A DNA stretch of 64,000 bases from an uncultured Candidatus Saccharibacteria bacterium (GCA_964565215.1 CAZMCO010000001.1:2025-66024); one strand, 5' to 3'. Counted from the first letter of the stretch, positions 136 through 38,280 are shown. Notes: generated by a model not told the origin, from the letters alone. Numbers and translations: made by a program.

Positions 136-936
136 ATGTCTAAACCTTTTTTGATTGATAGTCACGCTCATGTTAATCTTAATGCTTATAAAGACGATGG
201 TGATGAAGTAATTAAGCGGACTTTAAAAGAAAATATTTGGCTGATTAATATCGGCGCTCAATACAGCACCAGCCGTCGGGCGGTTCAGTATGCCGGAAAA
301 TATAAAGAAGGCGTTTATGCAGCAGTTGGGCTTCATCCAATTCATATTTTAGAAGAATTTGAATCAACTAAATATAAGGAGTTATTAGAAAATCCTAAGA
401 CAGTGGCTATGGGAGAGATTGGCCTAGAATATGGAGAGGGAATTAGCCAAGCAGCCAAAGATAAACAGAAAAAGGTTTTAATAGAACAATTGGAATTGGC
501 CCAACAAATAGACAAACCAGTTGTTTTCCATTGCCGTAAGGCCTACGATGATTTGATTGAATTATTAGTTCAATTTCAAACTGGTTGCGCTAATTGTCCA
601 ATGGCCTGCTCATCAGGCCTGCGAGGTGTTTTTCATTGTTTTATGGGTCGTTGGTCCCAGGCAGAAAAACTTTTATCAATGGGATTCTATTTTGGCTTTA
701 ATGGCTTGATTACTTATGCTCGTGATTATGATAAAGTCATTGAAAAGCTGCCTTTAGAGAAAATATTATTGGAAACTGATTGTCCTTATTTAACGCCAGT
801 GCCTCACCGAGGCAAAAGAAACGAACCCTTATATGTCAAATATGTCGCGGAAAAGATTGCTGAAATTAAGGGAATAAAATTGGAAAAAGTCGCCCAACAA
901 ACAACTAAAAATGCGAGGGAGTTGTTTAATATCTAA
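136..936 (+). CDS. TatD-family metal-dependent hydrolase/DNase
   Basis: N-terminal DSHAHVN motif, 266 aa, and a TIM-barrel hydrolase signature (HCF..G, E..D). It sits 6 nt downstream of the metG stop. Confidence 0.85.
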   Translation: MSKPFLIDSHAHVNLNAYKDDGDEVIKRTLKENIWLINIGAQYSTSRRAVQYAGKYKEGVYAAVGLHPIHILEEFESTKYKELLENPKTVAMGEIGLEYGEGISQAAKDKQKKVLIEQLELAQQIDKPVVFHCRKAYDDLIELLVQFQTGCANCPMACSSGLRGVFHCFMGRWSQAEKLLSMGFYFGFNGLITYARDYDKVIEKLPLEKILLETDCPYLTPVPHRGKRNEPLYVKYVAEKIAEIKGIKLEKVAQQTTKNARELFNI

Positions 937-942
937 GGACGC

Positions 943-3342
943 ATGAAATACAATCCGCAAAAAATTGAAAAAAAGTGGCAAGAGAAATGGGCTAAACAGA
1001 AGCTTTATCAGGCCGAGGATTTTTCTAAAAAACCGAAAAAATATATTATGGTGGAATTTCCTTATCCTTCAGGCGATGGCTTGCATGTTGGCCATGTCCG
1101 CAGTTATACGGCTCTTGATGCTTTGGCTCGCAAGAAAAGAATGGAAGGATACAACGTTCTTTACCCGATGGGCTGGGATGCTTTTGGTTTACCGACGGAA
1201 AATTATGCTATCAAAACCGGTATTCACCCAGCTAAAGTGACTGAAGAAAATATTAAGGTTTTTAAAAAACAAATGAACTCACTTGGTCTTTCTTTTGACT
1301 GGTCTAGAGAAATTAATACAACTGATCCTAGGTATTATAAATGGAGCCAATGGATTTTTCTGCAGTTTTTTAAAAAAGGGTTGGCTTATCAATCAGAAAT
1401 GCCCATTAACTGGTGTCCCAGCTGTAAAATTGGTTTGGCTAATGAAGAAGTTATTAGCGGCAAGTGCGAACGCTGCGGCGCTCAAACCGAAAAAAAATTA
1501 ATTAAGCAATGGCTTTTAAAAATTACCAAATATGCTGACCGATTGATTGATGATTTAGAAAAAATTAATTATTTAGAAAAAATTAAAACCCAGCAGATTA
1601 ATTGGATTGGCCGCAGTTATGGAACAGAAATTGATTTTCCAGTCGTTGACTCAAAAGATGTAATTGTTGTCTTTACTACTCGGGTGGATACTATTTTTGG
1701 CATTACCGCTATGATTATCGCCCCAGAACATCCTCTATTGGAGAAATTGACTAGTCCTGAAAATAAAGAGCAAGTTAAAGAGTATGTTTTGGCTTCCAAA
1801 AAGAAAAGTGAGTTTGAAAGAACTCAATTAGAAAAAGAAAAGACTGGTGTTTTTCTCGGCTCTTATTGTCTTAATCCAATCAATCAGGAAAAAGTACCGA
1901 TTTGGGTCAGTGATTATGTCATTGCTACTTATGGCGGTGGGGCAGTCATGATTGTCCCGGCTCATGATAAACGTGATTATGCTTTTGCCAAAAAATATGG
2001 TTTGGAAATTCGGGAAGTTATTTCAGGCGGCAATATTAATAAAGAACCTTATCTGGAATATGGTAAATTAATTAATTCAGGTGATTTTAACGACTTATCT
2101 TTTCAAGAAGCAATTAAGAAAATTACTGATTGGTTGATAAAAAATAAATGCGGCCGTCAGACAGTCCAATATAAATTGCGTGATTGGATTTTTTCCCGCC
2201 AGCATTATTGGGGAGAACCCATCCCGATTATTCATTGTTCAAAATGCGGTGCCCTAGCTGTGCCAGAAAAAGATTTACCAGTTAAATTGCCTTACCTAAA
2301 AAAATATCAGCCCAGTCAAACCGGTCAGTCCCCTTTGGTTAAAATAAAAGAATGGCTAGAGACAAAATGTCCCAAGTGTGGCGGTCCAGCCCAAAGAGAA
2401 ACCGACACTATGCCTAATTGGGCTGGCTCTTCTTGGTACTTTTTAAGATATATTGACCCCAATAATGATAAAAAGTTTGCTAATTTTAAGAAGTTGAAAT
2501 ACTGGCTGCCAGTTGATCTTTACAATGGCGGTATGGAACATACCACCCTTCATCTGCTTTACTCTCGTTTTTGGCATAAATTTTTATATGACCTCGGTTT
2601 TGTCCCGACCACTGAACCCTATCAACGTCGCTATTCACATGGAGTTGTTTTAGCTGAAGATGGTCGCAAGATGAGTAAAAGTTTTAATAATGTTATTAGG
2701 CCAGATGATGTTATTAAAAGATATGGAGCTGATACTCTACGAATTTATGAAATGTTTATGGGGCCTTTTGACCAAATGATTAACTGGAACACTAAAGGAG
2801 TTCAAGGTTGTTGGCGTTTTCTTAATCGAGTTTGGCAAATATTTAATGATAAACAGAAGATAGGGACTAAAACAGATAAAGAATTATTATCTAAATTACA
2901 TCAATTAATTAAAAAAGCCAGCGCTGATTTAGAAGCCATGAAATTTAATACAGCTGTCGCATTTTTTATGAAATTTGTTAATGCCTGGGCCGAGGGCAAG
3001 CGGATTTTATCTAAAAAAGAAGCCGATATTTTCTTACGGCTTTTAGCTCCTCTAGCTCCTCATATTGCCGAAGAACTCTGGGAACAATTGGGCCACCGAG
3101 ACAGTATTTTAAAAGAAAAATGGCCTCTTTATGACAAGAAGCTCATTGAAGAAGGAACTTTCCAATTGATTATTCAGATTAACGGTAAGGTTCGAGACAA
3201 AATAGAAGTTAAAAAAGATATTTCTGAAAAAGAAATTAAAAAGCTGGTTTTATCCCAAGAAAAAGTTCAAAAATGGTTGGCCAACAAGCAAGCCAAAAAG
3301 ATAATTTATATTCCTAAAAGATTAATTAATTTAGTCGTATAA
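943..3342 (+). CDS. leuS: leucyl-tRNA synthetase
   Basis: HVGH (HIGH) motif, a KMSKS motif, and the LeuRS-typical string YNVLYPMGWDAFGLPTENYAIKTG. Length is 799 aa. Confidence 0.95.
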   Translation: MKYNPQKIEKKWQEKWAKQKLYQAEDFSKKPKKYIMVEFPYPSGDGLHVGHVRSYTALDALARKKRMEGYNVLYPMGWDAFGLPTENYAIKTGIHPAKVTEENIKVFKKQMNSLGLSFDWSREINTTDPRYYKWSQWIFLQFFKKGLAYQSEMPINWCPSCKIGLANEEVISGKCERCGAQTEKKLIKQWLLKITKYADRLIDDLEKINYLEKIKTQQINWIGRSYGTEIDFPVVDSKDVIVVFTTRVDTIFGITAMIIAPEHPLLEKLTSPENKEQVKEYVLASKKKSEFERTQLEKEKTGVFLGSYCLNPINQEKVPIWVSDYVIATYGGGAVMIVPAHDKRDYAFAKKYGLEIREVISGGNINKEPYLEYGKLINSGDFNDLSFQEAIKKITDWLIKNKCGRQTVQYKLRDWIFSRQHYWGEPIPIIHCSKCGALAVPEKDLPVKLPYLKKYQPSQTGQSPLVKIKEWLETKCPKCGGPAQRETDTMPNWAGSSWYFLRYIDPNNDKKFANFKKLKYWLPVDLYNGGMEHTTLHLLYSRFWHKFLYDLGFVPTTEPYQRRYSHGVVLAEDGRKMSKSFNNVIRPDDVIKRYGADTLRIYEMFMGPFDQMINWNTKGVQGCWRFLNRVWQIFNDKQKIGTKTDKELLSKLHQLIKKASADLEAMKFNTAVAFFMKFVNAWAEGKRILSKKEADIFLRLLAPLAPHIAEELWEQLGHRDSILKEKWPLYDKKLIEEGTFQLIIQINGKVRDKIEVKKDISEKEIKKLVLSQEKVQKWLANKQAKKIIYIPKRLINLVV

Positions 3343-3343
3343 A

Positions 3344-3378
3344 AAGACGCCAAAGTTTTTACTCTGGCGTTTTTTTTA
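3344..3378 (+). terminator. rho-independent terminator after leuS
   Basis: GC-rich imperfect hairpin (acgccaaag...ctctggcgt) followed by a T8 run. Confidence 0.6.
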
Positions 3379-3405
3379 AGAGGGTTCTTAGTTCTTAATA
3401 GTTAA

Positions 3406-3762
3406 TTAGTAGTTAATAAGTTTATTAACTGTTTCAAAGAGAAAAGAAAGATTGAATGGTTTTTTTACTATTTCGTCGGCGGGATTTTCTTCGGGGATTA
3501 GATCTGGTCGACCAGTCATAATAATAACTGGTAGATTAGGAGATTTTGTTTTAATTATTTTAGCTAATTCCAGGCCATCCATTTGAGGCATATTCATGTC
3601 AGTTATAATCAATTGAGGTATATTATATCCATTTTGAATATGCAGTAAGGCCTGGTCTCCGTCAAGGCAAGAGTAGGTTTCAAATCCTTTATAGTTTAGA
3701 GATCGCTCTAAAACTTCGGCAATTTCTGGTTCATCATCAACGACTAAAATCTTTTTTGGCAT
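3406..3762 (-). CDS. single-domain response regulator (CheY-like receiver)
   Basis: ILVVDDEP N-terminus with a conserved Asp pocket, 118 aa, and no output domain. Confidence 0.8.
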   Translation of the reverse strand: MPKKILVVDDEPEIAEVLERSLNYKGFETYSCLDGDQALLHIQNGYNIPQLIITDMNMPQMDGLELAKIIKTKSPNLPVIIMTGRPDLIPEENPADEIVKKPFNLSFLFETVNKLINY

Positions 3763-3851
3763 TGTTTCTCCTGACCCTCCTTATTTTTTGTTTTTATTAA
3801 AGAACCCTTTAGTTATAGATATTATGATAATCATTTTACCTTGTCAAGTGT

Positions 3852-4496
3852 ATGGAAATTATTAAAATTAATTTATCAACTGATTGGAATAATCCGAAGA
3901 TTATTCATAAAGCCATGACTGTTATTCAGAGAAATGGCAGTATTGTTTATCCAACTGATACAGTTTATGGCTTAGGGGTAAATGCTTTGCGAGTTCATTG
4001 TCTGGAACGCCTCTTTAAGATAAAAAAACGACCGGAAACTAAGCCAGTCCCAGTGATGATTGGTGATATTGCCATGGCTAAAAAGTTAGCTTTTATTGAT
4101 AGAAAAACAGAAAAAATTTTAGAAGCAGTTTGGCCAGGACCAGTCACTGTTATTTTAAAAAAAAGAGAGATTGTTCCAGATATCTTAACGGCTGGCAAAA
4201 TGACTATTGGCTTGAGAATTCCTGATTGTCGACTTATTCAAGTTTTGTTAGCCAATTTAGAAGAACCAATAACTGCTACCTCGGCTAATTTTTCTGGTAA
4301 CCCTTCTTTAATTTCAGCCGTTGAAATTATTGAAATATTTGCCAAGGCCTATCCTCGACCTGATTTAATTTTAGATGCTGGCGATTTACCAAATAGTCTG
4401 CCATCGACTGTTTTGGATTTAACTGGCTCTCAGCCAAAAATCTTGCGAGTTGGACCAACTAGTAAAAAAAACTTATTAAAATTTCTTGGAACTTAA
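3852..4496 (+). CDS. tsaC: L-threonylcarbamoyladenylate synthase (YrdC/Sua5 family)
   Basis: YPTDTVYGLG motif and 214 aa length are typical of YrdC. Confidence 0.85.
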   Translation: MEIIKINLSTDWNNPKIIHKAMTVIQRNGSIVYPTDTVYGLGVNALRVHCLERLFKIKKRPETKPVPVMIGDIAMAKKLAFIDRKTEKILEAVWPGPVTVILKKREIVPDILTAGKMTIGLRIPDCRLIQVLLANLEEPITATSANFSGNPSLISAVEIIEIFAKAYPRPDLILDAGDLPNSLPSTVLDLTGSQPKILRVGPTSKKNLLKFLGT

Positions 4497-5032
4497 TGGA
4501 TTCTTATCTTTTTCATTTTTTAAATCAATGGGCCGGCCAATGGATTTGCTTAGATACCCTGGCTATTTTTGTAGCCATATTTTTACCTTATTGGCTAGTG
4601 GTTTTTTTAATTGGTTGGCTGATTTGGAAGAAAACAATCAAGATGATTGTTGTATCTTTAGTAGCCGCTCTTTTTGGCCGTTTTATTATCACTGAAATAA
4701 TTCGCTGGTTTTATTATCAACCACGCCCTTTTGTGGCTGAACAGGTTAATCAATTGGTTGAGCATTCAACCAGCGGCTCTTTCCCTTCTGGCCACGCCGC
4801 TTTTTTCTTTGCTTTAAGTATGGTTATTTATTTACATAACAAAAAAGCTGGCTGGGTATTTTTTACCGCCAGTTTTTTAATTGGCTTAGCCAGGATTTTT
4901 ACTGGACTTCATTATCCTTCAGATATCTTAGCCGGGACGCTGATTGGCTTATTTTTTGGCTGGTTGATTTACTTTCTTTGGTGCCGGAGGCGGGAGTCGA
5001 ACCCGCAAGGACCAAAGTCCACAGCATTTTGA
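4496..5032 (+). CDS. PAP2-family membrane phosphatase (undecaprenyl-diphosphatase-like)
   Basis: PSGH and HYPSD PAP2 motifs with multiple TM segments. The 3' end runs antisense into tRNA-Leu(CAA). Confidence 0.65.
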   Translation: MDSYLFHFLNQWAGQWICLDTLAIFVAIFLPYWLVVFLIGWLIWKKTIKMIVVSLVAALFGRFIITEIIRWFYYQPRPFVAEQVNQLVEHSTSGSFPSGHAAFFFALSMVIYLHNKKAGWVFFTASFLIGLARIFTGLHYPSDILAGTLIGLFFGWLIYFLWCRRRESNPQGPKSTAF

Positions 5033-5065
5033 GTGCTGCGTGTCTGCCAGTTCCACCACTCCGGC
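4979..5065 (-). tRNA. tRNA-Leu (anticodon CAA), long variable arm, CCA encoded
   Basis: Manual fold. The acceptor arms GCCGGAG / CTCCGGC pair, the anticodon stem CAGCA/TGCTG closes a CTCAAAA loop, and the T-loop reads GGTTCGACTCC. Confidence 0.8.
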
Positions 5066-5129
5066 TTATTAATATTCTCTCTTAAAATCCCCTTGTTGTC
5101 AATTGGAAATCAGAGTATAATAGAAGTGT

Positions 5130-5894
5130 ATGGCTCAAATAATCAGTTTGGTCAATCAGAAAGGGGGTGTTGGCAAGAGCACATCGGCTATAAATTTATC
5201 TGGTTACTTGGCAGCTATGGGTAAATATGTTCTTTTGGTTGATATTGACCCGCAAGCCAATGCTACTTCGGGAATTGGTTTAGACCCCCAAAATCTTCCC
5301 TTAAATTTATATCATTCTTTAATTGGCGGTCTTTTACCTGAAGAAATTATTCGTCAGACAGCTCTTTTTGGCTATGATATTATGCCAGCGGCTCCTGATT
5401 TGGCCGGGGCAACCGTAGAATTAGTTTCCCAGCCCAATCGGGAATTCAAACTTTACGAATTACTCCGTCGGATTAGAACTAATTATGATTATATTTTAGT
5501 TGATTGTCCTCCCAGTTTGGGTCTTTTAACTATTAATGGTTTAGTAGCCGCTGACGAAGTAATTATTCCAGTTCAGTGTGAATATTATGCCTTAGAAGGA
5601 CTAGGACAGCTTTTAAGAACCATTGAATTGGTCCAGGAAAATTTAGCCAGTCCAACAAAAATTAAAGGAGCTTTATTAACTATGCATGATCGTCGCAATA
5701 AACTTTCCCGGCAGGTAAAAAAAGAAATGGAAAGAAATTTTTCAGGTTATATTTTTGGGGCAGTCATTCCTCGTTGTGTTAAATTGGCCGAAGCGCCCAG
5801 TTTTGGTCAATCGATTCTTCAATATAATCCTCATTCTAAAGGAGCTAAGGCCTATCGACAGTTGGCTCAAGAAATAATTGGCCTTGACAAATAA
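5130..5894 (+). CDS. parA: chromosome partitioning ATPase ParA/Soj
   Basis: Deviant Walker A KGGVGKST motif; 254 aa. Confidence 0.9.
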   Translation: MAQIISLVNQKGGVGKSTSAINLSGYLAAMGKYVLLVDIDPQANATSGIGLDPQNLPLNLYHSLIGGLLPEEIIRQTALFGYDIMPAAPDLAGATVELVSQPNREFKLYELLRRIRTNYDYILVDCPPSLGLLTINGLVAADEVIIPVQCEYYALEGLGQLLRTIELVQENLASPTKIKGALLTMHDRRNKLSRQVKKEMERNFSGYIFGAVIPRCVKLAEAPSFGQSILQYNPHSKGAKAYRQLAQEIIGLDK

Positions 5895-5897
5895 TTT

Positions 5898-6806
5898 ATG
5901 AAAACATCGCTTGGTAAAGGATTACAATCTTTGATTCCTAAAAAACAGTCTAAAATAGCTAGCTTGATTAAAAATCAATCTAGGAGAGAAAGCTGGCTGG
6001 GGGCAAAAAAGGAAAGTATTTTTAATATAGAGATTGATAAGATTAGGCCTAATCCTCGCCAGCCCCGTAAAAACTTATCTAAAGATAGCTTGAAAGAGAT
6101 GGCTGATTCTATCAGAGAGCATGGCATTCTTCAGCCTTTGATTGTTACTAAAATTGAGAAACCAACTGAACGAGGCCGCCAAGTAGAGTATGAATTAGTA
6201 GCTGGTGAACGGAGATGGAGAGCGGCTCAAATGGCTGGCCTACCCCATGTACCAGTAATTATTCGGGATAGTTCAGCTAATGAAAAATTAGAGCTAGCTT
6301 TAGTAGAAAATCTCCAACGAGAGAATCTTAATCCCATTGAGACGGCCCAGGCCTATAAGCAACTCCGAGACGATTTTAAGTTAAAGCATAGTCAGATTGC
6401 TCAAAAAGTAGGCAAGAGTCGGGTAACCATAACTAATACTCTGCGACTTTTGGCTTTGCCGTCAAAAGTTCAAAAAGCAATGATGGAAGGTCGGATTACT
6501 GATGGTCATGGTCGAGCTATTTTAATGGCTAAACCGATGGCTCGCCTGTCTCTTTATCAAACGGTTATTAGAAATAATTTAGGTGTTCGTCAGACTGAAG
6601 ACAAAGCCAGGAAAGTAGCTTTGCCTAATAAGCTATACGCTCAAGGTCCAAAAAATCCTCTTTTTAGAAAAATAGAAAAAGACCTGGGAAAGGTCTTAAG
6701 TCAACGGGTAAGTATTCTTCGCAGAGGAGATATGGGGTATTTAAATATTGGCTTTGCTAGCCAGAAAGAATTAGACAAGGTAGTTAAGCACTTATTGAAA
6801 ATTTAG
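5898..6806 (+). CDS. parB: chromosome partitioning protein ParB/Spo0J
   Basis: ParB box (GERRWRAA) and an HTH region; it lies immediately after parA. Confidence 0.9.
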   Translation: MKTSLGKGLQSLIPKKQSKIASLIKNQSRRESWLGAKKESIFNIEIDKIRPNPRQPRKNLSKDSLKEMADSIREHGILQPLIVTKIEKPTERGRQVEYELVAGERRWRAAQMAGLPHVPVIIRDSSANEKLELALVENLQRENLNPIETAQAYKQLRDDFKLKHSQIAQKVGKSRVTITNTLRLLALPSKVQKAMMEGRITDGHGRAILMAKPMARLSLYQTVIRNNLGVRQTEDKARKVALPNKLYAQGPKNPLFRKIEKDLGKVLSQRVSILRRGDMGYLNIGFASQKELDKVVKHLLKI

Positions 6807-8272
6807 TTCTTTCTAAACCAGGCCTTGATTCTATTTTTAGCTTCATTAGTTTTAACAAATTTCAACCAATCTCTATTTGGTTTTTTATTTTTCTGAGTAA
6901 TAATTTCAATTACTTGACCGTTCTGTAATAATTGAGATAAAGAGCTTAACTTTCCATCTATTTTGACGCCGCTACATTGGTGACCAACGTCAGTATGAAT
7001 TTGATAGGCAAAGTCTATTGGGGTAGCTCCTTCTGGCAAATCAATGACATCGCCTTTGGGAGTGAAGACAAAAATGCGGTCCTTTAAAAAATCAATTTTT
7101 AATGAATTAATGAATTCTTGAGGCGAAGCAAATTTTTCTTTTTGCCACTCTTGAAGCTGTTTGACCCAAGTTAGTTCTTTTTTTAATTCTTTTTCTGGCC
7201 TTGGCTCTAAAATTCTTTTTTTTATATAATTCTTCAATCCTTTTTCCTCACTGTAGTGCCAGTGAGCAGCAATGCCATGTTCGGCTTCTTTATGCATTGC
7301 CAATGTCCGAATTTGGAATTCAGTGATTTTTCCTCCTTGGCAGAAGACGGTCGTATGAAGCGATTGATAACCATTAGGTTTAGGAATAGCAATGTAATCT
7401 TTGATTCGGCCAATCAAGGGTTTCCATTTTTTATGAATAATTCCCAAAGTGGCATAGCAACTTTCAATATCCGGCACAATAATTCGCAGAGCAACCAAGT
7501 CATAGATTTTATGCCAGTCCATATCATAGCGTTGAAGTTTTTTGTATAAACTATAGTAATGTTTGGTTCGGGCATGAATCTCAATTATTTCAACCCCTTG
7601 CCTGACTAAAATTTTTTTAACCAAAGGGATGATTTTTTGAAGATATTCTTTTGTCTGGCTGTATTTATCCTTAACTTGTTTAATTAGGTTTTGATATTCT
7701 TGAGGATAAGCGTAGCTAAAAGCCAGATCTTCTAATTGTCCTTTAAGCTCGCCGATGCCCAATCGGTAAGCTAAGGGAGCATAAATTTCCAAAGTTTCCA
7801 GAGCAATTCTTTTTTGTTTTTCCAAAGGGAAGATATAGAGAGTTCTTAAACCATGGAGTCGGTTGACTAATTTAATCAAGACAACGCGGATATCTTGAGC
7901 CATGGCCAGAAATAATTTACGAAGATTTTCTAAACTACGTTCAGCTTTTTGGTGTTCTATTTTGCCAACATTGGTTACTCCTTCAACTAAGAAAGTAATT
8001 TCCTGACCAAATTCCTTTTTAAGTTGCTCTTTAGTTAGCTTAGCTCTTTCTAATGTTTCATGGAGGATAGCGGTAACTACGCTGGCTGAATCCAATTTCA
8101 TTTTAGCCAAATCCAAGGCAATTTCTAAGCAGTGGTCAAAATAAGTTTGGCCAGAAAGCCGAACTAAGCCTTGATAATTTTCTTGAGCAAAAGAACAGGC
8201 TCTGGCGATTAAATTAAAGTCAAGTCTTGGATTAATCTTATTTAATTCTTCTAAAAATTGTTTTATCTCCAT
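6803..8272 (-). CDS. rel: RelA/SpoT-family (p)ppGpp synthetase/hydrolase, no ACT domain
   Basis: Contains an HD hydrolase motif, a synthetase domain and a TGS domain in 489 aa. Its 3' end overlaps the parB stop by 4 nt, convergent. Confidence 0.85.
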   Translation of the reverse strand: MEIKQFLEELNKINPRLDFNLIARACSFAQENYQGLVRLSGQTYFDHCLEIALDLAKMKLDSASVVTAILHETLERAKLTKEQLKKEFGQEITFLVEGVTNVGKIEHQKAERSLENLRKLFLAMAQDIRVVLIKLVNRLHGLRTLYIFPLEKQKRIALETLEIYAPLAYRLGIGELKGQLEDLAFSYAYPQEYQNLIKQVKDKYSQTKEYLQKIIPLVKKILVRQGVEIIEIHARTKHYYSLYKKLQRYDMDWHKIYDLVALRIIVPDIESCYATLGIIHKKWKPLIGRIKDYIAIPKPNGYQSLHTTVFCQGGKITEFQIRTLAMHKEAEHGIAAHWHYSEEKGLKNYIKKRILEPRPEKELKKELTWVKQLQEWQKEKFASPQEFINSLKIDFLKDRIFVFTPKGDVIDLPEGATPIDFAYQIHTDVGHQCSGVKIDGKLSSLSQLLQNGQVIEIITQKNKKPNRDWLKFVKTNEAKNRIKAWFRKN

Positions 8273-34452: not shown

Positions 34453-34930
34453 TGACTCCTGCCTTTTTTAAGGCCTCCATTTCTTCTTTAGACAAAGGAT
34501 ATTTTGATTGACCAACTTCTATTGGCTTACTGTAAATTCTGCTTTCTTCCCTTGAATACAAACTAGAGATAACTAAACCATTATTTTTTGAATCAAGTAA
34601 AGCGATGACAAAACTTTGGTCACCGCCAGTATCTTTAAAAGGATTGAAGCGGATCAAGCCAACTTTCTGAATACTTTGACTGGCCATTTTCTCTAAAACC
34701 TTAGAAGATTTAATCAGTTTTTTAATTTCCGCCTCTGATTTTTTCATTCGTTTAATTTCTTCAAAGAGAACTCCTTCTAAATCAGAGGCCTTTTTACCAG
34801 CAAAAAATACTTTCAGCTTTTTTTTAATTTGCCAAAGATGAAAATGAAGGAAAAAATTCCAAATAATCAATAGGCTAATAACTATTAGAAAAATAAAGAA
34901 AATTGTCTGGTTAATTAAGATATTTTCCAT
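34436..34930 (-). CDS. DUF4446-like membrane-anchored protein
   Basis: N-terminal TM plus the ...LIRFNPFKDTGGDQSFVIALLD... core, resembling DUF4446. Confidence 0.45.
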   Translation of the reverse strand: MENILINQTIFFIFLIVISLLIIWNFFLHFHLWQIKKKLKVFFAGKKASDLEGVLFEEIKRMKKSEAEIKKLIKSSKVLEKMASQSIQKVGLIRFNPFKDTGGDQSFVIALLDSKNNGLVISSLYSREESRIYSKPIEVGQSKYPLSKEEMEALKKAGVNVKKK

Positions 34931-35077
34931 GGCGGAGTTAACGTCCCAAATTTCGAACTAAAATTGTCTCAAATTGATCCTTTTGTCCGGAAATTAAGGA
35001 AAATTTACAAAGTTAATCCTGAATGGTTTGAGGTTCCTGAATTTGGGATTGAATTATTTTAGTCCTTATCTTTAAAG

Positions 35078-36070
35078 TTATTCTACATTAAACATCACAT
35101 AATTGCCAGATTCTTTAACAGCGACATCGCGAGATTTTCGGTGATTTTTGTAATCAAAGTTTTTAATCAAATTTTCTAATTGCTTCTTGTCTTTAGCAAT
35201 AAAACATTGATAGCTACTAGCCAATATGAGTTGATTTATTTCTTTTACTTTCTTTTTATCCAATTTAAGAAAATGTTCCGTTTTTGATTTAATTTTAGGC
35301 TTTATTGCAATACATAAATCCGGTCTTAGTGGAAAGAGAACAATAGCATTCGAGGATAATAAGCCGTTCATAATTTTTGTTGGCGATAAAGTAAAACAAG
35401 GATTATCTGATGTTGTAAAAAAGGAGTCTTTTGGCGCGTTTAAAAACAACCACTGAACATTAAATAACCCTTTTGCTAATCTCTCAACTTTTAAAATATC
35501 TTTTGAGTGCCCTGTATTTGTTAATTTTATTTTATAATCATCACTATGAAGAAATTGAAAGGTCTGCTTCTTGATTTCCGCATCAGACATCGTATTAATT
35601 TTTTCCAAAGCGTCTTTCTCAAATTTATTGGCAGGATTATGTTTAAGAATTTCTTCTTTTGAAATTTTGATTTTATCCAAAGAAGAAGTATCTTTTCGTA
35701 TAAAATATTTAATTACTGCTTCCATAAATTTGTCGGTCTCTTCCCTATGTCTTAGAGTTCTAATATATTGAAGAGCAACATAAAATGCGATACAACTTCG
35801 TTCCCATCCGTTTAATTGTTTTTGTTTTTTATTATCAATATTTCTGATACTTTCGGTTCCCTTAGAATCAATCAAAGCTGTTATTTTTTCGGGTAAATAA
35901 AATTTGTCTTTTCCTTCGGTAAAAACATTAAAATCTTTTTTCCAAAAACCTTTCCATCTAACCCCTCGCTCTATGAATTTATTTTCTGGAATCAAATAAA
36001 TATTAAGCTGATTACTGTTATTCTGCCATTGCACAAGGTATTTGGCTTGAATAGTGTGGTGTTTTGCCAT
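35078..36070 (-). CDS. hypothetical 330-aa protein, DUF4238-like
   Basis: N-terminal HH..Q..YL motif and internal TSDNP motif as I recall for DUF4238. It is divergent from the methyltransferase, with an 81-nt shared promoter region. Confidence 0.35.
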   Translation of the reverse strand: MAKHHTIQAKYLVQWQNNSNQLNIYLIPENKFIERGVRWKGFWKKDFNVFTEGKDKFYLPEKITALIDSKGTESIRNIDNKKQKQLNGWERSCIAFYVALQYIRTLRHREETDKFMEAVIKYFIRKDTSSLDKIKISKEEILKHNPANKFEKDALEKINTMSDAEIKKQTFQFLHSDDYKIKLTNTGHSKDILKVERLAKGLFNVQWLFLNAPKDSFFTTSDNPCFTLSPTKIMNGLLSSNAIVLFPLRPDLCIAIKPKIKSKTEHFLKLDKKKVKEINQLILASSYQCFIAKDKKQLENLIKNFDYKNHRKSRDVAVKESGNYVMFNVE

Positions 36071-36151
36071 AATTACATATCCTGTGGATAAAGCGGGTTT
36101 GTGTCTGTATAGGTATCATATTATAATATAAGTAGTAACGCAAATGATTTT

Positions 36152-37249
36152 ATGCCAACCACCCAAACATTTAAAGCAATTTATTTTCCTGATTTTAAAG
36201 AAGTAAATCCTAAATCAAAGGGTTTGATTTTAGCTTTCGGCGAAAAAAACAAAGATCTATACAAAAATATCGCCGATTTGGAAAGTAATGAAATTAGGAA
36301 TTTGCTTGGAACTGATTCATATATTGAACTCGAACAACGGGCTAAAGAAGAAGGTTTGCCAGTAAATACTTATTGTCTTTGGTATTTGCGGAAAAATGTA
36401 TTTGCTGAAGAGGAAATAATCAACAATAACGATTCAAAAGAAAAACCTATCTCCCATTTCTCTAATAATGTAATTGAAGGTGATTGTTTAGAGGTTATGA
36501 AAGAAATTCCGCCAAAATCAATCGATATGATTTTATGTGATTTGCCCTATGGCACTACTCAAAATAGTTGGGATAGTCTTATTCCGCTTGATCTGCTTTG
36601 GGAGCAATATGAACGTATTATTAAAGATCAAGGCGTTATTGCTCTAACTGCACAAGGTTTATTTACTGCAAATCTATCTTTGTCAAATCCAAGATTATTT
36701 AAATATAAGATTACTTGGGTAAAATCAAAGCCAACCAATTTCCTTAATGCCAAAAAGCAACCATTACGTAAACATGAGGATATTTGTATTTTTTACAAAA
36801 AACAGCCTGAATATAATCCACAAATGACTTATGGCGAACCTTATAATAAAGGATTCCGAAAAGATCAATTAACTGGAAGTTATGGTGATTTTAAAACCGT
36901 AGAAGTAAAAAGCAATGGCGAAAGATATCCGACCGATGTTATTTATTTTAAAACAGCCGAAAGTGAAGGGGAAGTCTACCATCCTACTCAAAAGCCAGTT
37001 GAGCTTGGCCGTTATTTAATTCGCACCTTTACCAAGACCGATGAGATTGTATTAGATAATACTTGTGGGAGTGGAAGCTTCCTTGTTTCCGCAGTTTTAG
37101 AAGGCAGAAAATTTATTGGCATTGAAAAAAATCAAGAAGTTTATCTTTTCAAAAAACACCGAGTAGATTATATTGATGTTTGCAAACAGAGAATTAAAAA
37201 AGCACAAGAACAATACAAAATAGAAAGCAGTAAAGTAAAGCTTTTCTAA
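36152..37249 (+). CDS. beta-class N6-adenine/N4-cytosine DNA methyltransferase with ~100-aa N-terminal extension
   Basis: Motif IV DLPYG (a DPPY variant) at ~aa 130, HPTQKP at ~aa 270, and motif I LDNTCGSGSF after that; the order IV before I defines beta class. Confidence 0.85.
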   Translation: MPTTQTFKAIYFPDFKEVNPKSKGLILAFGEKNKDLYKNIADLESNEIRNLLGTDSYIELEQRAKEEGLPVNTYCLWYLRKNVFAEEEIINNNDSKEKPISHFSNNVIEGDCLEVMKEIPPKSIDMILCDLPYGTTQNSWDSLIPLDLLWEQYERIIKDQGVIALTAQGLFTANLSLSNPRLFKYKITWVKSKPTNFLNAKKQPLRKHEDICIFYKKQPEYNPQMTYGEPYNKGFRKDQLTGSYGDFKTVEVKSNGERYPTDVIYFKTAESEGEVYHPTQKPVELGRYLIRTFTKTDEIVLDNTCGSGSFLVSAVLEGRKFIGIEKNQEVYLFKKHRVDYIDVCKQRIKKAQEQYKIESSKVKLF

Positions 37250-38163
37250 ATCCCGCTATATGGTTCTTCCTGTAATATTTTTCTGGCTTCTTCTATTTCA
37301 TCCTCACTTAAAATTCCTTTCTCTTTTAGCCAATTTAATAAATGAAAATATTGGTTTGAATGCAAAATCGGCTTTACGATTTTACTAAGGCCGGTTTCTT
37401 TTTTTATAAATTCAAGATGTTTTTGCGACAGTATACCTCTGCCAATTAAATCGTAAGCGATTCTTAATGCATCAACAGAGGTTAAATTTAAATCGCCAAT
37501 GTGGTTTTTGTCTTTTTTAACATCTGTTTGTTCAATTTCTAAAAGATCTTTTATTTTACTCAAACCGTTTAGATTTCGATTATAAAACTCAATCTCTTGA
37601 CCACGGTAAGTAAACCAGGTTCGTCCTTGCTCTGTAAGAGAGCCGCGTGGCAAATAAACGCCTTCGCGCGCTACTCTTTTCTTTGAAGCCCAACCGCAAA
37701 TATAAAGTGTCCATTTTCTTTGTCTGGCAGTTCCTGGAAGTTCTCTATTTTTAGGTGTTTCAAGATGAGTCATTAAATAAATATCTGTATCAAGTTGTTC
37801 GTCATAAATCTGCCTGGCAAAAAAATTATGTTTTGCTTCTCTTGTGATACCATCGTTGCTTTCGTATTCCTCTTTGAAAGGCAAAGCTCCGCCTCTACAT
37901 TTTACATCTAATTTTACACCAGATGATAGTAAAATATCATAGCCCAAAGGATGATCTTCGGGATTAACTTCTGGCATTCCCAATTTATTCCTGATAACCA
38001 TCTCTGCCAAAGCTCCAAATCCTTGTTCTTCTTTACTGCCTCGTTCTGCACCAGTTATATTTTGATTTTTGGTAATATATTCTGCGGCTTTTTGTCTCAA
38101 ATCAAAACCAAGCTCATCGGTAAGCTTTATGGTAATTGGTTTTGGATGATGATATTTATACAT
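37246..38163 (-). CDS. PD-(D/E)xK-type nuclease, candidate cognate restriction endonuclease
   Basis: GYD-x9-LDVK core preceded by acidic residues. Convergent with the methyltransferase, and the two stop codons overlap (tTAa). Confidence 0.45.
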   Translation of the reverse strand: MYKYHHPKPITIKLTDELGFDLRQKAAEYITKNQNITGAERGSKEEQGFGALAEMVIRNKLGMPEVNPEDHPLGYDILLSSGVKLDVKCRGGALPFKEEYESNDGITREAKHNFFARQIYDEQLDTDIYLMTHLETPKNRELPGTARQRKWTLYICGWASKKRVAREGVYLPRGSLTEQGRTWFTYRGQEIEFYNRNLNGLSKIKDLLEIEQTDVKKDKNHIGDLNLTSVDALRIAYDLIGRGILSQKHLEFIKKETGLSKIVKPILHSNQYFHLLNWLKEKGILSEDEIEEARKILQEEPYSGI

Positions 38164-38189
38164 AATTTAAAAAAGTTCGAAATTGGACG

Positions 38190-38280
<91 letters not shown>

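Follow-up and report, generated by a model that had tools for sequence, protein, structure and literature searches.

The question raised by this locus is whether a gene of the DUF4238 family that stands back to back with a DNA methyltransferase gene is a working part of the neighboring restriction-modification (R-M) system or an independent defense gene that travels with it. The locus lies in a 64,000-nucleotide stretch of DNA from an uncultured Candidatus Saccharibacteria bacterium (GCA_964565215.1 CAZMCO010000001.1:2025-66024), hereafter the window, in which positions are counted from the first letter. An earlier reading made from the sequence alone (the sequence-only reading) had proposed the DUF4238 gene as a possible third component of a defense island, together with the methyltransferase and a PD-(D/E)xK nuclease. 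From the comparisons below, DUF4238 is probably an autonomous second-line defense gene carried as the exchangeable cargo of a mobile R-M cassette. Taken alone, the window gene is an ordinary member of a known defense family in a small defense island; the less ordinary features lie around it, mostly in related loci, and comprise LexA-methyltransferase fusions, a probable shared LexA operator, a three-state cargo slot, tRNA-end insertion without a recombinase, and a fold without a solved counterpart. The genes and the region between them are as follows:

35078 to 36070, minus strand: gene for the DUF4238 protein, the cassette cargo (330 amino acids, an open reading frame (ORF) from ATG to stop)
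36071 to 36151, no strand: divergent regulatory region of 81 nt serving the DUF4238 and methyltransferase genes
36152 to 37249, plus strand: Type II N6/N4 DNA methyltransferase of 365 amino acids (PF01555, E = 1.3e-23; PADLOC MTase_II, 2.1e-63), with an unassigned N-terminal domain of about 95 amino acids
37246 to 38163, minus strand: candidate restriction endonuclease of 305 amino acids, its gene running toward that of the methyltransferase with a 4-nt overlap

Membership of the encoded protein in DUF4238 is genuine and the gene is intact. The match to PF14022 lies far beyond chance (E = 1.5e-27; 97.2 bits against a Pfam cut-off of 27) and is full length, running from residue 3 to residue 295 of the protein and from position 1 to position 280 of the 281 in the model. 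The sequence-only reading had named the family from two motifs in a 330-residue protein beside a methyltransferase, and the neighbor, the ORF, and both motifs are as it described them: the protein begins MAKHHTIQAKYLVQW, in which HH..Q..YL corresponds to H4, H5, Q8, Y11, and L12, and TSDNP occupies residues 220-224 of the longer string TTSDNPCF (219-226). The end coordinate given there, 36151, combined the ORF, which ends at 36070, with the intergenic region. Both hallmark motifs of PF14022, H-H/x-x-x-(P/Q)-x-x-Y-L and F-x-T-S-D-(N/S)-P-C-F, are therefore present in the window protein. When conservation was assessed in 19 members with identities down to 16%, H5, Y11, L12, F218, T220, S221, D222, P224, C225, F226, P247, and N279 were invariant or nearly so, and such compact polar invariants on an otherwise variable scaffold suggest that DUF4238 is an enzyme.

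The AlphaFold (AF2) model of the protein, built on an alignment of 39 sequences, reaches a predicted local distance difference test (pLDDT) score of 93.9 and a predicted template modeling score of 0.89. Comparison of the model with the PDB by Foldseek gave no match below E 0.65, and a search of the PDB with the sequence profile gave no match. Structurally, the model matches one protein only, Smp_43 from the P2-like Stenotrophomonas phage Smp131 (E = 1.2e-9; TM 0.50/0.55), a borderline PF14022 member encoded beside an integrase; its gene lies between the integrase gene and one for an SOS-response-associated peptidase (SRAP) (L093, 30939-32551). PF14022 is found in all 118 homologues collected, which come mostly from Patescibacteria. 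No relatives of the window gene were found in viral contigs or phage genomes, and plasmids gave one remote match. The GC content is 0.29-0.31 over positions 34700-36250 (0.29 for the DUF4238 gene), compared with 0.34-0.44 in the core genes around, and this dip fits recent acquisition of the gene as cargo.

The family as such is a validated single-gene anti-phage system of unknown mechanism. One DUF4238 gene, from a variable hotspot of a P2-like prophage, confers strong resistance to T7 in E. coli (Rousset et al., 2022; PMC9122126), so that "uncharacterised," the word used in the sequence-only reading, understates its status. Defense-annotation tools name the family Rst_DUF4238 (DefenseFinder) or DUF4238-Pers (PADLOC), and a 2024 survey still listed DUF4238 without an assignable known domain class. 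The window protein shares with these systems the PF14022 domain, the motifs H-x-V/I-P/Q-x-x-Y-L and F-I-T-S-D-N/S-P-C-F, the form of one polypeptide of about 300-330 amino acids, and the position of exchangeable cargo in a mobile-element hotspot, and the only structural match of its model is likewise a DUF4238-like protein of a P2-like phage. It differs in its carrier, a tRNA-targeting R-M cassette in Patescibacteria instead of a P2 prophage, and in sequence. Its identity to proteobacterial members is about 20%, and its match to DUF4238-Pers (PDLC03000) is weak (22.3 bits, E = 1.9e-5, residues 3-253). Scores are 24-31 bits for other members of its clade, from bacteria of the Candidate Phyla Radiation (CPR), and 44-63 bits for more typical ones, and the central helical region is longer in the CPR clade.

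That the gene is cargo follows from comparison with related loci, which are referred to by number. The 305-amino-acid gene, the methyltransferase gene, and DUF4238 form one block of 3.25 kb (window 34938-38191) with the following ends:

34938 to 35077, minus strand: conserved non-coding tail that follows the cargo gene and has the distal inverted repeat at its far end
34941 to 34958, no strand: distal arm of the terminal inverted repeat, ACGTCCCAAATTTCGAAC, pairing with 38175-38190 at 16 of 18 positions with a 2-nt indel
38175 to 38190, no strand: tRNA-proximal arm of the terminal inverted repeat, GTTCGAAATTGGACGT, found in all cassette copies (L066-L073, L094, L095, L101, and L102)
38192 to 38280, minus strand: tRNA-Ser(cga), whose CCA end abuts the cassette and whose last 8 nt, TGGCGGAG (38192-38199), recur at 34930-34937

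In L066-L071, a DUF4238 protein 93% identical to that of the window (P0001) is accompanied by the methyltransferase (92%) and the 305-amino-acid protein (90%) in an identical arrangement. The DNA common to the window and an L066-type genome extends from window position 34930 to 38219 at about 90% nucleotide identity, and homology between genomes stops at the distal repeat arm. The flanks differ between the window and L066-L071 (RecG and tRNAs border one end, MgtE the other), and the core proteins flanking the L066-L071 cassettes share only 41-56% identity with their window counterparts. The block has therefore been transferred between distantly related genomes, and this contrast in identities indicates that the three genes were transferred together. 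In every case the proximal end of the block directly adjoins the CCA end of a tRNA gene, but the tRNA varies: the window has Ser(cga) there, L066 has Asp(gtc), and L067/L068 have Ser(tga). A simple target-site duplication was considered for the 8-bp repeat TGGCGGAG and rejected because the distal copy is nearly unchanged when the tRNA differs. No recognizable integrase or transposase lies inside the cassette. Identity to the window tail is about 90% in L066-L069 and 67% in L094, where the tail follows the SIR2 cargo; Rfam has no match for the tail, and shuffled sequence is predicted to fold at least as stably.

The same cassette frame also occurs with other contents. L094 and L095 share with the window the proximal repeat, the R-M genes, and the promoter region (86% nucleotide identity, window 38197-36099) as well as the tail and distal repeat (67%, window 35050-34925), and the place of DUF4238 is taken by a 338-amino-acid SIR2_2 (PF13289) gene (L094:4913-5929; L095:6096-7112). 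SIR2_2 is a domain typical of anti-phage effectors. In L101 and L102, the R-M backbone is retained (83% nucleotide identity up to window 36077) and the slot is empty; the two-gene cassette of L101 lies between two full tRNA-Asp copies (4888-4964 and 7130-7203). Therefore, DUF4238 is one of at least three states of this slot (DUF4238, SIR2_2, and empty), and the alignments place the start of the slot a few bases past TTATCCACA, an element of the divergent region. The SIR2_2 gene of L094/L095 has a TTATCCAC element upstream, as in the window, and a related tail downstream; near it are a Mrr_cat gene and a serine recombinase fragment.

Beyond these cassettes, the R-M pair and DUF4238 are found apart in both directions. 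The pair occurs without DUF4238 in L074-L087 and L094-L102, in places that include the interval between mreB and mreC, the region upstream of nusA, and a site next to a cupin gene, and DUF4238 is usually absent from loci of the 305-amino-acid gene. In turn, none of L001-L047, which hold DUF4238 relatives of at most 81% identity, has a 305-amino-acid gene nearby; about 20 of 32 DUF4238 clade loci have no R-M gene within two genes, 16 distant DUF4238 loci have no R-M genes nearby, and no gene family common to all DUF4238 loci was found. Obligate co-occurrence of DUF4238, methyltransferase, and nuclease fails across the genomes examined. As judged from these distributions, the R-M pair is self-sufficient and DUF4238 is independent and interchangeable, apparently working as a single gene without an obligatory partner, and the fact that one slot in one cassette is found with DUF4238, with SIR2, or with nothing argues for an effector of that kind. 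The idea that DUF4238 controls the R-M system or forms a subunit of it was rejected, the pair being widespread without it. The third component of the sequence-only reading is thus borne out in its co-transfer, its shared upstream region, and a linkage to R-M genes within the clade, and contradicted where obligate co-occurrence is concerned, the slot being found empty or holding SIR2_2.

The divergent gap had been read as a sign of coordinated control, and both its length of 81 nt (36071-36151) and the TATAAT at 36122-36127 were given correctly. Two elements stand out within it:

36119 to 36130, no strand: palindrome ATATTATAATAT, with TATAAT on both strands (plus, 36122-36127; minus, 36125-36120), candidate back-to-back -10 elements
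36083 to 36091, minus strand: TTATCCACA, identical to the DnaA-box consensus and the sole exact copy in the 64-kb window

The region is kept in DUF4238, SIR2, and empty-slot cassettes, that is, whatever the cargo, and is therefore the resident promoter region of the methyltransferase. The ATATTATAATAT palindrome is conserved in every cassette version found (L066, L075, L081, L094, and L101). A lone TATAAT is not significant at about 30% GC; a promoter scan gave 18 sites against 13.9 expected, and the TATAAT at 36122-36127 is missing from its output because its -35 is weak. TTATCCACA is located about 30 nt from the methyltransferase -10, on its upstream side, and 12 nt ahead of the DUF4238 ATG. 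Of 35 DUF4238 loci, 15 have it at this position, and the R-M-only, SIR2, and empty-slot versions have it as well; its spacing to the methyltransferase or lexA -10 stays at about 30 nt in every version of the cassette, and it precedes lexA in L090 too. A DUF4238-specific signal was therefore rejected, since R-M-only versions have the element at a fixed distance from the methyltransferase -10, and by its position TTATCCACA is part of the resident promoter region and not of DUF4238. Rfam searches and RNA folding of the intergenic region and the downstream tail matched only tRNAs (fold z-score 0.62). Co-regulation of DUF4238 and the methyltransferase through the shared 81 nt is plausible.

The linkage of DUF4238 to R-M genes was followed through the clade in a census of 31 distinct DUF4238 loci, with two genes considered on each side, to which the window-type cassette was added to make 32. 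A DNA methyltransferase was found in 11 of the 31, LexA in nine, and a large serine recombinase in four. With the window type counted, a DNA methyltransferase stands no more than two genes from DUF4238 in at least 12 of 32 distinct loci, and at least eight different R-M modules are involved. L022 has a Type III mod-res pair directly upstream of DUF4238; other DUF4238 relatives adjoin serine recombinases or unrelated genes. The R-M modules are divergent from DUF4238 in many relatives, with gaps of 55-96 nt, and the leader sequence is conserved across different R-M partners, the divergent orientation being fixed. Co-occurrence across related genomes, proposed as a check in the sequence-only reading, therefore gives a divided answer: at least 12 of 32 loci lie near a methyltransferase, but the R-M pair is common without DUF4238 and DUF4238 also occurs without R-M genes. 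By this census, the link is real but clade-specific, and not obligatory.

Most of the methyltransferases concerned are unusual fusions with LexA, located as follows:

L001, 8474 to 9907, minus strand: LexA-methyltransferase fusion
L002, 962 to 2722, minus strand: LexA-methyltransferase fusion
L004, 1249 to 3114, minus strand: LexA-methyltransferase fusion
L006, 8185 to 9945, minus strand: LexA-methyltransferase fusion
L013, 1126 to 2577, minus strand: LexA-methyltransferase fusion
L014, 1342 to 2919, minus strand: LexA-methyltransferase fusion
L016, 1351 to 2874, minus strand: LexA-methyltransferase fusion
L017, 465 to 1925, minus strand: LexA-methyltransferase fusion
L025, 848 to 2770, minus strand: LexA-methyltransferase fusion

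A LexA DNA-binding domain, an S24 peptidase, and an N6/N4 methyltransferase are joined in a single ORF (477-640 amino acids) divergent from DUF4238 in L001, L002, L004, L006, L013, L016, L017, and L025, while L014 has a LexA-C5-methyltransferase fusion with a Vsr gene between the fusion and DUF4238; LexA fragments at contig edges are also present in L005, L026, L044, and L045. The convergent restriction partners of the fusions differ in family from one fusion to another and are Tsp45I, MvaI/BcnI, TaqI, an endonuclease VII-like protein, and an unknown 274-amino-acid protein. PF01555 is also carried by about 15 of the 120 top LexA homologues in the protein database. To our knowledge, fusions of a complete LexA to methyltransferases have not been described, and our literature searches found no description of a complete LexA (DNA-binding domain plus S24 peptidase) joined to one. 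In pairwise comparisons of loci, the identity of DUF4238 does not correlate with that of the LexA part beside it (r = 0.23): between L004 and L006, DUF4238 is 93%, LexA 54%, and the methyltransferase 23% identical, and between L002 and L006 the values are 68%, 83%, and 88%. Therefore, the modules have been reshuffled and yet have become adjacent again.

These loci also share a candidate operator. The direct repeat TTTCTAT-N4-TTTCTAT lies between -35 and -10 upstream of stand-alone CPR lexA genes and all LexA fusions. It was present in 16 of the 18 lexA upstream regions compared (0.012 expected per 120 nt) and is probably the LexA operator of Patescibacteria. Besides the intergenic regions of the LexA fusions, the regions with this repeat are listed here together with one more distant pair:

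L088, 3880 to 4000: region with TTTCTAT-N4-TTTCTAT
L092, 3280 to 3397: region with TTTCTAT-N4-TTTCTAT
L084, 6992 to 7110: region with TTTCTAT-N4-TTTCTAT
L090, 3880 to 4000: region with TTTCTAT-N4-TTTCTAT
L062, 6 to 434 (minus strand) and 539 to 1456 (plus strand): divergent DUF4238/lexA pair

In the LexA-fusion loci, the repeat lies immediately downstream of the DUF4238-facing -10 and overlaps the DUF4238 promoter; therefore, DUF4238 is probably repressed by LexA there. L062, in which a DUF4238 gene (about 25% identity to that of the window; PF14022, 128 bits) is divergent from lexA with a LexA-box-like repeat, indicates by its arrangement that the pairing of LexA and DUF4238 is not confined to one subclade. 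Neither the window nor L066 has a LexA domain or this repeat. The box is absent from 36071-36151, and elsewhere the window gives three weak matches against 3.9 expected; with membership of a LexA regulon taken as an operator in the promoter region, the LexA-fusion relatives qualify and the window does not. In addition, stand-alone CPR lexA genes are immediately followed by a co-directional RhuM-family or DpnI-like methyl-directed restriction gene (L088:4681-5643; L090:4644-5414), and the lexA locus may be a general landing place for defense genes in CPR bacteria.

Neither R-M gene of the window is a LexA fusion, and each has features of its own. The N-terminal domain of the methyltransferase (residues 1-95, window 36152-36436), also seen in L075 and L081, matches no known family, whereas relatives with an 81% identical methyltransferase core have an N-terminal LexA-type winged helix without the peptidase (L084:5915-6991, L086, and L087). 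Type II methyltransferases of the SsoII and EcoRII type have an N-terminal DNA-binding domain that represses their own promoter. The window enzyme resembles them in its extra N-terminal domain of about 95 amino acids, which is a LexA-type winged helix in the 81% identical relatives and a complete LexA in other partners of the DUF4238 clade, and differs in that the domain itself matches no known family. A DNA-binding, self-regulating role for the domain is no more than a reasonable guess.

The 305-amino-acid protein is paired with the methyltransferase in every locus examined, where the two genes converge and overlap by 4 nt. It has no match in Pfam, PADLOC, NCBIfam, PHROGs, or PDB sequences, and a profile search covering 59 clusters found no distant member of its family with a Pfam family. 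Its invariant residues E54, D76, and D86-V-K88 fit the PD-(D/E)xK motif; its AF2 model is poor (pLDDT 55.6). From this E..D..D-x-K motif, the strict pairing, and the 4-nt overlap, it may be a Type II enzyme of the PD-(D/E)xK class. It has more than 500 homologues at 77-90% identity in many CPR lineages, among them (P0119-P0238) Nealsonbacteria, Kuenenbacteria, Moranbacteria, Lloydbacteria, Azambacteria, and Gracilibacteria, and only 59 clusters worldwide at 50% identity, a narrow family with a wide and recent spread. In one CPR lineage (L074-L079 and L096-L098, positions 3362-7003), the R-M pair stands with an AbiEii-family gene and a 199-amino-acid gene between mreB and mreC.

Several observations weigh against an autonomous DUF4238 effector in the window. 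The phage-resistance phenotype comes from an E. coli member of a P2 hotspot, acting on T7, and not from the CPR clade; the validated subfamily is only remotely similar to the window protein (22 bits in PADLOC, about 20% identity to proteobacterial members); and the methyltransferase lies within two genes and divergent in at least 12 of 32 clade loci, with reshuffled modules adjoining again. Such recurrent adjacency could reflect a real functional link to R-M instead of mere co-location. DUF4238 would then be a coupled third component under shared regulation, acting on a restriction or DNA-damage signal (restriction fails, the chromosome is cut), and the co-transfer of the three genes, the range of at least eight R-M modules, the N-terminal LexA of most of the methyltransferases concerned, the LexA-box-like repeat in the shared intergenic region, the distant L062 gene (25% identity) that is also divergent from lexA, and the near-identical DUF4238 genes beside unrelated LexA-R-M modules would all agree with this. 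We nevertheless consider such coupling unlikely, because the window copy has neither LexA domain nor LexA box, the same R-M pair is common without DUF4238, the slot is otherwise empty or filled by SIR2_2, DUF4238 works alone in E. coli, and distant family members have no R-M linkage. The fixed orientation and spacing (divergent, 55-96 nt), the leader conserved across R-M partners, and the precise replacement by SIR2 within the cassette frame speak against passive adjacency, in which accessory genes would pile up at hotspots such as tRNA ends and the lexA locus with no functional or regulatory relation and DUF4238 might be non-defensive in CPR bacteria. This is very improbable in our estimation, even though CPR lexA genes also precede DpnI-like or RhuM-like genes without DUF4238, the R-M pair inserts at many sites (between mreB and mreC, upstream of nusA), and serine recombinases adjoin several DUF4238 genes.

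Two other roles were weighed for the gene itself. R-M pairs can behave as addiction modules, and DUF4238, sharing a small mobile element with such a pair and having the low GC content (0.29) typical of mobile cargo, might be a toxin-like gene that stabilizes the cassette by post-segregational killing or competitor exclusion, without a part in phage defense; an antitoxin partner would not be needed if the shared region represses expression tightly. We regard this as improbable: the validated phenotype of the family is phage resistance, the alternative cargo is a typical anti-phage effector domain, and no antitoxin-like small ORF or RNA was found adjoining the DUF4238 gene by ORF calls, Rfam, or folding. 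That DUF4238 itself moves the cassette, as a new kind of recombinase or transposase targeting tRNA 3' ends, is suggested by the combination of inverted repeats and tRNA-end junctions with no recognizable integrase or transposase, and by the conserved His, Asp, and Ser residues of a protein whose fold has no known counterpart. It is scarcely credible all the same, as the inverted repeats are missing from most DUF4238 loci, a cargo-less two-gene version is also inserted at a tRNA, and the known phenotype of the family is phage resistance; a role as cassette recombinase was rejected because SIR2 and no-cargo cassettes have the same ends.

In the favored reading, that of an autonomous defense gene carried as exchangeable cargo, transcription of DUF4238 would start in the promoter region that belongs to the cassette and run away from the methyltransferase, with the minus-strand reading of the palindromic TATAAT as the likely -10, and DUF4238 expression would be coupled to that of the methyltransferase through the shared 81 nt. 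The protein would work on its own as a second barrier after restriction, most likely by an enzymatic activity that halts infection and perhaps sacrifices the cell. H5 and Y11 of the invariant N-terminal His/Tyr motif, together with S221 and D222 of the F-x-T-S-D-N-P-C-F loop, may form its catalytic center, while the variable central helical region (approximately residues 60-205) may do the sensing. The arrangement resembles islands of R-M genes with abortive-infection-type effectors (SIR2, Abi), in which first-line R-M and an unrelated second defense gene are packed and moved together; in the window-type cassette, too, the second gene is interchangeable (DUF4238, SIR2_2, or nothing). It differs from those islands in its size of only 3.25 kb, its defined inverted-repeat ends, its single delimited cargo slot at the methyltransferase promoter, and its site at the tRNA CCA end.

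A more far-reaching possibility, which we hold to be doubtful, is that Patescibacteria have a damage- or restriction-triggered DUF4238 effector wired to R-M through the N-terminal domain of the methyltransferase, which is a full LexA in most relatives and the unassigned 95-amino-acid domain in the window. Breaks from failed restriction or self-restriction would derepress both genes from a single back-to-back promoter, the backbone with its cargo slot would be a new kind of non-autonomous mobile defense element directed at tRNA ends, and the effector would have a fold and chemistry without precedent among solved structures. CPR bacteria mostly lack CRISPR and are not easily cultured. If the wiring is true, the LexA-methyltransferase fusions and the shared LexA box would link restriction, DNA damage, and a second layer of defense in these bacteria. 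For the family, DUF4238 is among the few validated anti-phage genes without a known domain class, fold, or mechanism, and its clade offers a target for structural work, with a confident model (pLDDT 94), no solved counterpart, and few invariant residues to mutate.

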